Part shown: positions 12,801 to 15,331 of the stretch, piece after piece | Layout of the letters: the number at the start of each line of letters is the position of its first letter | Numbering within the stretch: the stretch's first letter is position 1 | From: a virus | Length of the DNA stretch: 33,835 nt | Reading direction: 5' to 3' (one strand) | IMG/VR virus record: IMGVR_UViG_3300018430_002347 | Notes under the pieces: model-generated | Databases searched by the model: none | Told to the model about the DNA's origin: nothing | Seen by the model: the letters and a program-made list of their open reading frames with translations, nothing else | Program-made: the position numbers and the translations under genes

Positions 12801-12956
12801 CTATGAATAATACTCTTTCATGATTCTGTCAATTTCCGCTTCTGTATCTGCTTGCTCTTCTTCTGTCGGCGGTCTGAAATCATTATCAGGAACATGAACG
12901 AAAACCAGTACCTCGTCAGATCGGTCGTTCCAGTATTCAATTTCTTCTTTCGTCAT
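12801..12956 (-). CDS. Small acidic protein (51 aa) coupled to the MuF gene stop
   Basis: ATG 12956..12954 overlaps the MuF gene TGA (ATGA overlap). Translation MTKEEIEYWNDRSDEVLVFVHVPDNDFRPPTEEEQADTEAEIDRIMKEYYS. Followed immediately by a hairpin plus T4. Under the 60-aa cutoff of the supplied track. Confidence 0.45.
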   Translation of the reverse strand: MTKEEIEYWNDRSDEVLVFVHVPDNDFRPPTEEEQADTEAEIDRIMKEYYS

Positions 12957-15331
12957 TTCCATGTCTTTATAACCTCAAGCACAATATCATTTCCTTTTCT
13001 TGACTTTATCCTATACTGCACATCCTTGTCAATCAGGAATTCTCTTTGTCCTGGCTTTCGGCTTAACTTTTCCACATAAGCTCCAGGTGTTCCCTTTGGA
13101 GCAAATATTGTTATGTGGTACTCTCCGTCCAATGCCCTGCTGGGGATTACAGATGTGCTGAAAAACTGTTTCCCGCTCACTTGTGCTCCCACCTTTGAGC
13201 CTGCAAATGGATCAACCTTAATATTTCTAAAACAGATAATATCTTCCTGCAATGGCTGTTTTTTAAGGGCAGCTGATATCGTGTCAGCGTATCCTCTTAG
13301 ATATGGATCCTCAGGTGCATCTCCCCGAAGCATAGCGTTTAATCTCTGATAGAACTTATTATCTTTTTCTTCTTGTAAAGAATTTTTTGTATACTTGCGG
13401 ATTGCATGCTTCTCATCCTTTGAGAGCATTTCTATCCAAGGATCATATTCTTTACGCATCGTATCAACTACAACATTCTCACGAACAGCATGAAATCCTT
13501 TAATCGCCTCGGGCGTTGTACGAGAGGCAGTGCTTATTGCTGTTGTCTTTGCTTTTGATTCCAAGGACTTTATATACTCCGGATCCAGCAGATCCGTCTC
13601 GCCCTTCATATAGGCTGCAAAGCTTTCGGCAAGATATTCTGACTTACTTGCTGTGGCATAACCGGAAAGATGAGGCGCATATTCCTGCATTCGTCCAGTT
13701 ATGCTGTTGGTAGTCTTCGGATCTAATACTGTCCATTGGACATGATGGCCGAGTTCATGTGTAAAAAGGCCTTCGACCGTGTCACCGCTCACGAGCTCCC
13801 GCCCAGCTTTTGCATACCTCTCGGCAAGTTCTTTCTGACGGCCGGACAGCTTGTCCATGTTGTTCATCACGAGATCCCATGATTCCTTGGATCGCTGCAT
13901 GTACGCATCCAGTGTCTTCGGATTCTTCAGCACAGCCTTATTAATATAAATGCCATGCTGGACTGGATCATATGAGAACAAGGCGTCTTCTCCGCTGGGA
14001 AAAGCCTTTTTCCCAAGTCTTGAAGTTGGATCTACAGCCTTGATTCCTGACAGCTTTTCGAGATCAGGAAATCTACCATATACTTCCGTCAGAGAACGGT
14101 TGATTGCATTGGCGTGTTCCAACGAGATGCCCTTGAAATCCACTTGCCCTTTGAATGTCCGATCCATGAAGTTCTGTTTGCAGAACTGCTTTGCATATTC
14201 CTGTGCCTCTTCGATTGTCTCCGCCGGTTTGAATGGAGCTGCCTGTTCCTTCCACTGGTTTGCACGATGGCGGGCAGTCTGCCGGTTCTCCGGGTCAAGG
14301 CTGTGCTTTGCAAGCCGATCCTGCCTGTCTGCCTGCCTTTCTACATAGTTCTCTCTAGCTTCCCCCTTCTCCGCCTTAGCTGCTTCCTTCAGCTCCTTCT
14401 TTGTCGCGTCCGGATCTGGAGCGGAGCTGATCCCAGGGAAATACGTCGTAAATCCGTCCTTACATCTCGGATGCAGGAAGCCCTGCTGCATAGCCGTGCT
14501 GAGCAGCTGATGTTTTCCATCCGGCTTACCGCCGGAGTACACATCATCTACCAGTACCTTTCCGAGCCACACTATGCACTGAGGACATGCTGTGCCGTGA
14601 TCACCATTACGCATTGAACCGCGCTTATTGACTATAACCAGCTCCTCGCCCCACTCTTTCCGCTTTTCGCCTTCTCCCATCAGATAAGCCCGACGTTCAG
14701 CGGTTCTGATCGCCATGTCCGCATAGTCGCTGATCGTGTGTCTGGAGCCGTTCTTGTAGACGATGCTGTCAATACCGCGAAGGAGAAAATCCTTCGTTGC
14801 CATATCCACTGCCTTCTGAATTGTTCCCGCCCCGGTATTGGCATACATCTGAGCGTCAAATATTATCTTTCGATACTGATCATTGGAGCGCCTCAGGACG
14901 GCCTGCTCAGCCTTCTGCAGATCACTGTGCGTACTTTTCACCAGTGCTTCGAGTTTTTTATCGTTGATTCTGAAAAACGCATCTCCGGAGCCCTCAATGG
15001 CCGCCCCGTTATTATTTGTGTGTTGCCTTAACGGAACATTTCCTCTCGAAAGAGTCTCAAGGATTCGTTTTTCCTCATCTTTCTGTCCATTCTCTTTTGC
15101 ATACCGTATCGCGTCCTCGATTCGTTTATTGATGCGATCAAATTCCGGACCGTACTTTTTTCGGTTTTTCTTGCGATATTCCGTCAGGTATTTCAGCTGT
15201 TCGACCTGCCATTGGTTCCAGTCGAATCCTTCATCGTCTTCTTCTTTCAGATGGCGCTTCAGGTTTCGCATCATGGACTCGATCATTTCTTCTTCGATTC
15301 TCGCAAATGCTTTTCCCGCATCATAGGCCAT
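12953..15331 (-). CDS. Minor head protein, MuF/SPP1 gp7 family, fused to a zincin HExxH domain and a C-terminal ADP-ribosyltransferase toxin domain (792 aa)
   Basis: MuF motif ...GDHGTACPQCIVWLG...GFLHPRCKDGF (about aa 245..293). HELGHH at aa 525..530 with a downstream EYLAESF that could be a third zinc ligand. C-terminal 150 aa carry Y..LNAMLRG, FRN (Arg), FFSTSV (STS) and GQREF (Q-x-E), the R-S-E triad of C3/VIP2/iota-type ARTs. Immediately downstream of the portal gene. Confidence 0.85.
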   Translation of the reverse strand: MAYDAGKAFARIEEEMIESMMRNLKRHLKEEDDEGFDWNQWQVEQLKYLTEYRKKNRKKYGPEFDRINKRIEDAIRYAKENGQKDEEKRILETLSRGNVPLRQHTNNNGAAIEGSGDAFFRINDKKLEALVKSTHSDLQKAEQAVLRRSNDQYRKIIFDAQMYANTGAGTIQKAVDMATKDFLLRGIDSIVYKNGSRHTISDYADMAIRTAERRAYLMGEGEKRKEWGEELVIVNKRGSMRNGDHGTACPQCIVWLGKVLVDDVYSGGKPDGKHQLLSTAMQQGFLHPRCKDGFTTYFPGISSAPDPDATKKELKEAAKAEKGEARENYVERQADRQDRLAKHSLDPENRQTARHRANQWKEQAAPFKPAETIEEAQEYAKQFCKQNFMDRTFKGQVDFKGISLEHANAINRSLTEVYGRFPDLEKLSGIKAVDPTSRLGKKAFPSGEDALFSYDPVQHGIYINKAVLKNPKTLDAYMQRSKESWDLVMNNMDKLSGRQKELAERYAKAGRELVSGDTVEGLFTHELGHHVQWTVLDPKTTNSITGRMQEYAPHLSGYATASKSEYLAESFAAYMKGETDLLDPEYIKSLESKAKTTAISTASRTTPEAIKGFHAVRENVVVDTMRKEYDPWIEMLSKDEKHAIRKYTKNSLQEEKDNKFYQRLNAMLRGDAPEDPYLRGYADTISAALKKQPLQEDIICFRNIKVDPFAGSKVGAQVSGKQFFSTSVIPSRALDGEYHITIFAPKGTPGAYVEKLSRKPGQREFLIDKDVQYRIKSRKGNDIVLEVIKTWK

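Follow-up and report, generated by a model that had tools for sequence, protein, structure and literature searches.

A rumen Lachnospiraceae phage head protein joining MuF, predicted zincin and ADP-ribosyltransferase domains, with a candidate inhibitor gene coupled downstream

Introduction

MuF polymorphic toxins of temperate phages have been described by Zhang et al. 2012 (PMC3482391) and Jamet et al. 2017 (PMC5576092), with ADP-ribosyltransferase (ART) and metallopeptidase domains among their common extensions; the latter study also gave the Phage_min_cap2 family (PF06152) the name 'MuF2'. Bxa, a MuF-ART, is antibacterial and is neutralized by the small binding protein Bsi and the hydrolase BAH, and the Apk2 MuF toxins have adjacent immunity genes as well (PMC11699363). 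For polyvalent proteins built around a zincin-like MPTase hub, processing of the polypeptide by an LF-like zincin has been proposed (Iyer et al. 2017, PMC5512222), and fusions of Alt/VIP2-clade ARTs to MuF have been explicitly reported (Iyer et al. 2022, PMC9503650). T4 Alt is an R-S-E ART that is packaged in the head and injected with the DNA (summarised in PMC5512222).

Here we have analysed a 33,835-nucleotide stretch of viral DNA (IMG/VR record IMGVR_UViG_3300018430_002347, the window), which comes from a temperate siphophage of rumen Lachnospiraceae. Its head module carries a gene for a 792-aa protein that has a MuF domain (module A), a predicted zincin (module B) and a predicted ART (module C), and is followed by a very small ORF (Table 1). 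In comparison with the described MuF toxins nothing essential differs: the N-terminal domain belongs to the MuF superfamily (PF04233, PF06152, MuF3 and MuF4), here as MuF2; the phage is a temperate one of Firmicutes, and the gene lies in its packaging/head module, just after that for the portal; the C-terminal toxin domain, of a kind common to other polymorphic toxin families, is polymorphic among close relatives; and an ORF of <150 aa immediately downstream co-varies with it. What is particular here is that zincin and ART stand in series, and that the downstream ORF can be assigned to a specific family linked to an ART clade. The locus is thus a further, clear member of the MuF toxin class as already known and does not represent a new type of system.

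From its description, Bxa of ΦBxa resembles the present case in having small ORFs next to it, with the product of one, Bsi, blocking the ART by binding; it is set apart, again by description, as a Bacteroidota protein that lacks a zincin and modifies arginine, whereas a zincin and a Q-x-E motif are found here. Like the polyvalent proteins, the 792-aa protein unites several effector domains in one presumably virion-associated polypeptide, although a small one of three domains. No inhibitor gene is known for T4 Alt, and this protein of a lytic myovirus is fused to neither MuF nor a zincin, in contrast to the MuF-zincin fusion of this temperate phage.

Results

Genomic setting

The ORF list of the window gives the gene as a single ATG-start ORF, with GAAGG 9 nt 5′ of the ATG. 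The order of the head module is terminase small and large subunits, portal, an ORF of ~63 aa, the 792-aa gene, scaffold and major head protein. The ~63-aa ORF, whose 3′ end overlaps the 5′ end of the 792-aa gene, is probably translated from an internal Met, as in relatives. The temperate-siphophage genes of the window include a tape measure gene and, at 29.9–33.8 kb, an integrase and Cro/CI-like HTH proteins; relatives are numerous in Lachnospiraceae of gut and rumen. A tRNA-Arg that ARAGORN called within the head module found no confirmation in Rfam and was dropped, and no NCBIfam family matched the toxin, its small ORF, YjcQ or the ORF upstream. A first-pass annotation, made by reading the letters of the window, had placed one 792-aa ORF in a head module and quoted a set of motifs from it; the ORF is reproduced, with PHROGs and Pfam identifying its neighbours, and every motif is found at the residues given below.

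Table 1. Positions of the 792-aa gene, its predicted modules and its neighbours in the window
Feature	Position	Strand	Remarks
MuF2-zincin-ART, whole gene	12953..15331	-	~90 kDa, pI 8.9
Module A, aa 1-361, MuF-superfamily minor head domain	14249..15331	-	Pfam Phage_min_cap2 + phrog_581
Module B, aa 366-595, predicted anthrax-LF/PPEP-like (M34-like) gluzincin	13547..14236	-	HExxH + Tyr/Glu residues
S/T/A-rich flexible linker, zincin-ART, aa 596-612	13496..13546	-	recombination breakpoint zone
Module C, aa 613-792, predicted C3/VIP2-type R-S-E ADP-ribosyltransferase	12956..13495	-	R702, S725-T-S727, Q762-R-E764
53-aa ORF, translationally coupled, candidate cognate inhibitor	12801..12962	-	39-56-aa family, ART-linked; pI 4.1
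Conserved small ORF, portal-MuF interval	15321..15590	-	phrog_25639
Portal protein gene	15424..17025	-	directly upstream; phrog_533 E=2.6e-80; context defining MuF genes

MuF and zincin modules

Module A, whose boundary was set from BLAST breakpoints at q361 in ~60 relatives, matches Pfam Phage_min_cap2 over aa 8–336 (E=2.6e-35, 122.5 bits against a cut-off of 26.3) and the PHROGs minor head protein phrog_581 (E=1.4e-59). It contains HPRCKDGF at aa 287–294, with H287-P-R-C290 preceded by C249-P-Q-C252. The MuF head domain named in the first-pass annotation is correct at the level of the superfamily; strictly, it is not PF04233.

Module B carries HELGHH at aa 525–530 (H525-E526-x-x-H529) followed by Y558-x6-E565-Y-L-A-E-S-F (SGY...EYLAESF), in which E569 is also present, so that the metallopeptidase-like segment noted earlier is upheld. 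The Pfam ATLF profile covers aa 516–577 (E=0.0015) below its gathering score, with 18.8 bits for the whole protein and 20.7 bits for the module alone against a curated cut-off of 27.4. ATLF is the first match for all 20 zincin relatives (best E=7.6e-7), and H525, E526, H529, Y558 and E565 are invariant in these 20, down to 46% identity. Their LF counterparts we take to be H686, H690, Y728 and E735 in Y-x6-E-F-F-A-E-A-F (LF numbering); the equivalence was drawn by comparing the motifs, together with the ATLF match. The domain is predicted to fold with confidence; the best Foldseek E-value was 0.28, and the zincin profile found no match among PDB sequences. The module is best described as a zincin with an intact predicted HExxH/Tyr/Glu site that is LF/PPEP-like, the evidence for this membership being moderate.

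Between zincin and ART, BLAST breakpoints fall at q593–613, and pLDDT drops below 50 at residues 236–251 of the model; the linker is also a possible processing site. Relatives that consist of A+B only are without a convincing coupled ORF, which fits a non-toxic, processing role of the zincin, short of proof.

The ADP-ribosyltransferase module

Module C matches ADPrib_exo_Tox (PF03496) over aa 627–779 (E=1.6e-18, 67.2 bits against a threshold of 23.4) and ART (PF01129; E=3.3e-5, 23.7 bits against 22.3); its match, like that of the MuF domain, is well beyond chance level. The motifs are FYQRLNAMLRG (660–670), FRN (701–703), FFSTSV (723–728) and GQREF (761–765). F701-R702, F723-F-S-T-S727 and Q762-R-E764 stand in register with the YR, STS and ExE or QxE of Lmo0066, C3larvin and Vip2, in agreement with the R-S-E signature and catalytic positions proposed earlier. 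R702, S725, Q762 and E764 are kept in 72 of 72 ART relatives and S727 in 70, the other two having S727T. The model has a confidently predicted ART fold with an N-terminal helical lobe. Sequence and structure prediction together show a C-terminal ART of C3/VIP2 fold with an intact predicted R/STS/QxE site.

C3 enzymes have an aromatic ARTT residue at position 3 before Q. The ARTT region here reads S-R-K-P-G-Q-R-E, with Lys at Q-3, while several relatives have Phe at that position (F-P-x-Q). A C3 exoenzyme in the strict sense is a secreted single domain with an aromatic ARTT turn-1 residue; since the ART here forms the C-terminal part of a head protein of 792 aa and has Lys at Q-3, it is a C3-type ART and not a C3 exoenzyme. 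Identity to C3 exoenzymes, VIP2, Certhrax and Lmo0066 (PDB 1r45, 1qs1, 4fxq and 8za7) is only 21–28%, and the protein differs from these toxins in having neither a secretion signal nor a PA-binding function. The Q-x-E motif hints at the target chemistry. It had been read as the mark of a C3-like enzyme that does not modify arginine; it is indeed typical of C3-like enzymes, but is no proof of a non-arginine target, as Certhrax and AexU share it (PMC6628389).

Exchange of the C-terminal cassette

In four sibling phages (L001, L007, L008 and L157), portal, MuF, zincin, scaffold and major capsid protein are 72–90% identical to those of the window, and only L001 has the ART and its small ORF. L007 and L008 carry other C-terminal tails, each with its own, different coupled small ORF, and L157 has neither ART nor small ORF. 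Further tails found in the same slot are Ntox50, Gln_amidase (glutamine deamidase), DUF6883 and putative metallopeptidases or other zincins, and also PBECR and CdiA-type tails according to precomputed Pfam assignments; the zincin modules of tail-swapped relatives are 50–88% identical. Other layouts include A+C (550 aa; 72 of 120 among the matches listed are 543–582 aa long), A+B alone, A+B with other tails, and other MuF domains joined to B+C. At the sequence level, this comparison shows that the C-terminal domain and the following small ORF are swapped as one cassette between near-identical head modules, which bears out the 'MuF polymorphic toxin / polyvalent protein' architecture suggested at first reading.

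A small ORF family linked to the ART

The 53-aa ORF begins MEMTKEE, with GAGG 10 nt 5′ of its start. A second ATG gives a 51-aa version (12801..12956) with an ATGA overlap at the toxin stop codon. This is the coupled acidic ORF of the first-pass annotation, which exists as described; translation may begin at either ATG. A coupled ORF of 39–56 aa is present at 80 of 80 ART loci. With the window and L001 copies left out, a profile of the family matched 77 of 13,365 ORFs (1.14 Mb). Each of the 77 follows directly on an ART gene, the 61 non-ART loci gave no match, and the window copy itself matches at E=5.9e-6. For 10 of the 48 unique ART sequences the profile misses the ORF that comes next, which is either a shorter variant (…DWDEE.RKDWEEKMNS) or is truncated or unchecked, and the homology of the shorter variant to the family depends on a single bridging sequence, L153. 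Standalone ART genes retain the small ORF. In the reverse direction, small ORF P0241 lies directly after a MuF2-ART gene, and P0220 is an orphan that adjoins a 29-aa C-terminal remnant of an ART.

These small ORFs form an unannotated family that, as far as sequence goes, is strictly linked to the ART clade, and this strict linkage makes the small ORF a strong candidate for the cognate inhibitor (immunity protein) of the ART. Acidity was dropped as a family trait, as the pI ranges up to 10 among the 10 members computed. A toxin-independent head-module gene is excluded, since L007 and L008 have other ORFs at this place, A+B-only genes have none, and the profile matches are ART-adjacent only. YjcQ (12430..12747) is not ART-specific as a partner, for in L007 it accompanies a non-ART tail, and other ART loci (L004) lack it. 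There is no support for a promoter of the small ORF within the toxin gene: the site at 13032..13003 inside the ART gene matches at 10 of 12 positions, which is at chance level (6 sites found against 4.5±2.3 expected). Bxa has an ARH-type hydrolase as its second immunity protein; here, an enzymatic immunity gene of ARH, macro or NADAR type (compare BAH, Tri1 and the Lmo0066 partner) was not found in the 37 window ORFs, out of 47 selected, that were scanned with Pfam. The earlier statement that no obvious immunity gene is adjacent undersold the small ORF.

Discussion

Taken together, we favour the reading that the gene encodes a MuF-family polymorphic toxin or polyvalent effector, whose ART would be packaged, delivered and, in the producing cell, silenced by the 53-aa protein; from sequence, structure models and analogy we give it a probability of roughly 0.7. 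SPP1 gp7, Mu F and T4 Alt, together with the literature on MuF toxins, suggest by analogy that through its MuF domain a small number of copies of the protein would enter the procapsid at the portal and would later leave the capsid together with the DNA. Once inside a newly infected cell, the ART may then mono-ADP-ribosylate, in an NAD+-dependent manner, at least one cytoplasmic bacterial target, with host takeover or host poisoning as the outcome. The zincin would most likely cleave flexible linkers and so free the ART, or alternatively act as a second effector. Translated by coupling from the late transcript that also encodes the ART, the 53-aa protein would bind the ART and keep it silent until packaging; being coupled and in the late operon, it would as drawn shield the producing cell, not lysogens.

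A different use of the same delivery would be takeover in the manner of Alt, the injected ART modifying RNA polymerase, translation factors or defence proteins for the early program of the phage and the small ORF serving as a folding or packaging chaperone. T4 Alt is a precedent for a head-packaged R-S-E ART, Iyer et al. have put MuF-fused Alt/VIP2 ARTs in that frame (PMC5512222, PMC9503650), and both the position of the gene in the late head operon and the co-translation of the small ORF with the toxin only would suit this reading. However, the same slot also houses growth-inhibiting toxins (Ntox50, the glutamine deamidase), and classical toxins that each have their own coupled small ORF in one slot make up a toxin-immunity pattern. 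The survival of an intact orphan small ORF beside a deleted ART also speaks against it, as does the antibacterial activity of the MuF toxins tested by experiment, Bxa and Apk2, both of which require immunity proteins (PMC11699363). We consider this reading unlikely.

Much less probable still is a factor directed at the animal, which like Bxa would be released on prophage-induced lysis and ADP-ribosylate rumen or gut epithelial proteins, with antibacterial activity as a side effect that requires an inhibitor. Bxa, from a Bacteroides stercoris prophage, does act on epithelial cells besides being antibacterial (PMC11699363), the nearest structural relatives of the ART model (C3, Certhrax, VIP2 and CPILE-a) target eukaryotes, and the gut and rumen Lachnospiraceae are rich in relatives. 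Yet the closest PDB sequence is Lmo0066, of an interbacterial-type ART-ARH pair, with Tre1 scoring too; a Pfam scan of the protein found no signal peptide, receptor-binding or translocation module, and no sequence feature addresses eukaryotic targets. That the enzymatic modules are inert passengers of a purely structural minor head protein, as the fully functional extension-free MuF proteins and the A+B-only and A-only relatives might suggest, is already disfavoured and barely credible against the conservation of both predicted active sites and the confident predicted folds of both domains.

With regard to the toxin reading, the 39–56-aa family may represent an undescribed class of mini, non-enzymatic ART inhibitors, co-inherited with the ART wherever it has been met: after MuF fusions, whether or not these include a zincin, after standalone ARTs, and in prophage remnants. 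Bacteria that retain an orphan copy in the chromosome could then be protected against an ART brought in by a phage. We regard this wider proposal as tentative, at slightly less than even odds.

The order of zincin and then ART is the same as in Certhrax and in the N-terminal half of anthrax LF. The ATLF-fold domain of Certhrax and the N-terminal domain of LF are catalytically dead, whereas HExxH/Y/E is retained here and both predicted active sites are intact. Phage head effectors of this kind may thus resemble the source of the Certhrax/LF toxin architecture.

Among Firmicutes of gut and rumen, ADP-ribosyltransferases borne by phages are widespread, and to our knowledge almost none of these enzymes has a known target or mode of control. 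The present locus is a well-bounded case, with an active-looking LF-like protease, an active-looking Q-x-E ART of C3/VIP2 type and a tiny partner gene, and its sibling phages, which differ only in the toxin cassette, are natural controls. Carriage in the capsid, the target, and the switching-off of the enzyme by a peptide of ~50 residues are therefore directly testable. To the picture of MuF toxins, otherwise unchanged, the locus contributes a specific family of candidate inhibitors and a cassette whose boundary is well defined.

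A MuF-zincin-ART protein in the head module of a temperate phage

The 792-aa gene is a single ATG-initiated ORF in the ORF listing of the window, and the motifs on which the first-pass annotation had based a MuF protein with a zincin and a C3/VIP2-type ADP-ribosyltransferase (ART) were all confirmed in it at the relative positions claimed for them. Its MuF and ART assignments were borne out by Pfam (Phage_min_cap2, aa 8-336, E=2.6e-35; ADPrib_exo_Tox, aa 627-779, E=1.6e-18; ART, E=3.3e-5), and PHROGs matched it to phrog_581, 'minor head protein' (E=1.4e-59); ATLF (Pfam) on aa 516-577 was sub-threshold (E=0.0015). 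From Pfam and PHROGs, the minus strand around the gene is a complete siphophage late operon. Since integrase and Cro/CI-type HTH genes are present, the phage is temperate; MAGs of rumen and gut Lachnospiraceae hold its close relatives.

Features of the window and of the 792-aa protein
Feature	Position	Strand	Remarks
Small and large terminase		-	late operon
Portal	15424..17025	-	
Conserved ORF		-	~63 aa; between portal and MuF-zincin-ART gene
MuF-zincin-ART gene	12953..15331	-	792 aa
Module A	aa 1-361		MuF2; BLAST breakpoints
HPRCKDGF	aa 287-294		
Module B	aa 366-595		zincin; BLAST breakpoints
HELGHH	aa 525-530		
Module C	aa 606/613-792		ART; BLAST breakpoints
FYQRLNAMLRG	aa 660-670		
FRN	aa 701-703		
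FFSTSV	aa 723-728		
GQREF	aa 761-765		
Sigma-70-like site	13003..13032	-	TTGACA-18-TAAAGT, 10/12; inside ART gene 3' end
Small ORF	12801..12962	-	53 aa; after MuF-zincin-ART gene
YjcQ-family gene	12430..12747	-	PF09639, E=2.5e-26; after small ORF
64-aa ORF	12195..12389	-	
65-aa ORF	11889..12086	-	after 64-aa ORF
Terminator-like hairpin	11861..11884	-	strong; 10-bp stem and T-run
tRNA-Arg(tcg) call	11777..11854	-	ARAGORN; between 65-aa ORF and scaffold gene
Scaffold, major head protein		-	after YjcQ; then tape measure and tail proteins
Integrase, Cro/CI-type HTH genes	29.9-33.8 kb		
DUF3800 protein	31665..32414	+	E=6.8e-8

Sibling phages share a conserved 77-aa gene, whose first ~52 residues the 64-aa ORF matches before an early stop at '...INKD'; the 65-aa ORF has no counterpart in those siblings and matches the Pfam 'Vault' repeat marginally (27.9 bits, cut-off 27). 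Together they suggest that this part of the head module has been replaced locally. The tRNA call, which has the hairpin just upstream of it, is probably false; Rfam returned no tRNA there at E≤0.1. The DUF3800 gene lies in the lysogeny region, flanked by the repressor-like genes and the integrase; it may be a moron or a gene with a link to defence.

Assignment of the ART module

The C3/VIP2-type assignment of the ART module is solid, given the comparison values obtained with C3bot2 (20.0), Lmo0066 (20.0), Certhrax (19.9), CPILE-a (19.3), C3stau2 (19.2) and VIP2 (18.3). LF and Certhrax each match both the zincin and the ART modules, and Certhrax has the same fold order as the serial zincin-ART of the window protein. 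The Q-x-E variant had been read as a C3 trait implying a non-arginine target; the C3 signature holds, but the acceptor residue is not fixed by it, since Certhrax and AexU also carry Q-x-E (PMC6628389). Three residues before Q762 the window ART has a Lys where several relatives have a Phe, a sequence difference which suggests that target recognition varies.

Exchange of modules and of C-terminal cassettes

When the protein was compared by BLAST, sharp breakpoints among the 120 best relatives (of 4,531 with E≤1e-5) divided it into three modules. The commonest form among these 120 is A+C (543-582 aa, seen in Blautia and Enterocloster); A+B alone (~600 aa), A+B with unrelated tails and B+C behind a different MuF-type N-terminus also occur. 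B+C occurs in at least 19 database clusters, and in 13 of these the A module is the same too. Both the zincin module and the small ORF are evidently duplicable, since one protein (P0026, 988 aa) has two zincin modules in tandem and another (P0168, 88 aa) resembles the small ORF duplicated in tandem.

At the four sibling loci L001, L007, L008 and L157, the proteins of portal, MuF, zincin, scaffold and capsid share 72-90% identity with those of the window; of the four, L001 alone carries the ART together with a homologue of the 53-aa ORF. L007 and L008 carry other C-terminal domains, each followed by its own different coupled small ORF, and L157 lacks both ART and homologue. In 61 loci picked via the zincin, the downstream ORF varies with the tail, which may be Ntox50, glutamine deamidase, DUF6883 or a putative metallopeptidase, among others; in the tail-less loci of this set the ORF is absent or unconvincing. 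Whether YjcQ is present does not depend on toxin type: certain sibling phages have it, as does L153, an ART remnant locus, and others lack it. Distant loci (L135-L144) have tail-less MuF-zincin genes with only 31-39% identity in module B, followed by tiny acidic ORFs of 26-40 aa (e.g. MEDIIIDDFYAEIRKLAEQVEKGKNK) of a family different from the ART-linked one.

A small-ORF family linked to the ART

A coupled ORF of 39-56 aa follows the ART gene in all 80 loci picked via the ART, at a gap of -4, -1 or +1 nt. With the copies of the window and L001 excluded, these ORFs yielded a profile that matches 77 ORFs among the 13,365 of 1.14 Mb. Every match lies directly downstream of an ART gene, and the 61 non-ART loci give none; the window ORF itself is matched at E=5.9e-6. 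After de-duplication, the profile finds a match at 38 of the 48 unique ARTs, and most of the others have a shorter variant, which a single sequence (L153) joins to the main family. Standalone ARTs in prophage remnants keep the small ORF, and so does one in a non-head context. A standalone 197-aa ART of the same clade (L150, 4001..4594; GQYE motif) lies outside any head module and has PBECR3, GNAT acetyltransferase, QueF-like and WYL genes as neighbours; after it the small ORF persists in a truncated 35-aa form (about 4585..4690). A search begun from the small ORF found one member after a MuF2-ART gene in a Lacrimispora genome. Database clusters of the family number at least 230; the 120 listed ones are without any Pfam domain, and where a source name is given it is always 'hypothetical protein'.

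An intact 40-aa member, P0220, is very abundant (788 index blocks, 382 contigs). In metagenome contigs of 96-344 kb (L163-L166, 2912..3123) it stands beside only the last 29 ART codons, flanked by 108-aa ORFs and a sigma-70-family gene; it is an 'immunity-like' orphan left after deletion of its toxin gene. Genomically, the small ORF thus behaves as a candidate cognate immunity or inhibitor gene. The sigma-70-like site ~40 nt upstream of it offers just a hint that the small ORF might be expressed independently, because such sites are no more numerous in this region than in shuffles.

Proposed mechanism and relation to known systems

The analysis shows what the domains are, that their catalytic sites are intact, that the gene lies in the head module, that cassettes are exchanged and that ART and small ORF are strictly linked; to this we add mechanistic steps inferred from SPP1 gp7, Mu F, T4 Alt and the MuF-toxin literature (PMC5576092, PMC5512222, PMC9503650, PMC11699363). 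By analogy, the MuF domain would take the protein into the capsid, which it would leave together with the DNA; the zincin would free the ART by cutting the flexible linkers (aa 337-375 and 596-612), and the ART would modify a cytoplasmic bacterial target in an NAD+-dependent manner, the small protein silencing it inside the producing cell. Two possible rival readings, an Alt-like takeover enzyme with a chaperone alongside and a Bxa-like factor directed at the animal host, both fit the toxin-cassette pattern less well.

The locus belongs to an already known class: catalogues from 2012-2017 list MuF proteins joined to ARTs and to metallopeptidases, MuF fusions with ARTs of the Alt/VIP2 clade have been explicitly described (PMC9503650), and Bxa is a characterised MuF-ART that is accompanied by an ARH hydrolase and by a small immunity protein which acts by binding (PMC11699363). 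Particular to it are the serial zincin-ART, the absence, in a Pfam scan of 37 window ORFs, of any immunity gene of the hydrolase type, and the tiny unannotated partner family. The inhibitor hypothesis for the small ORF is the aspect of this locus most worth experiment.
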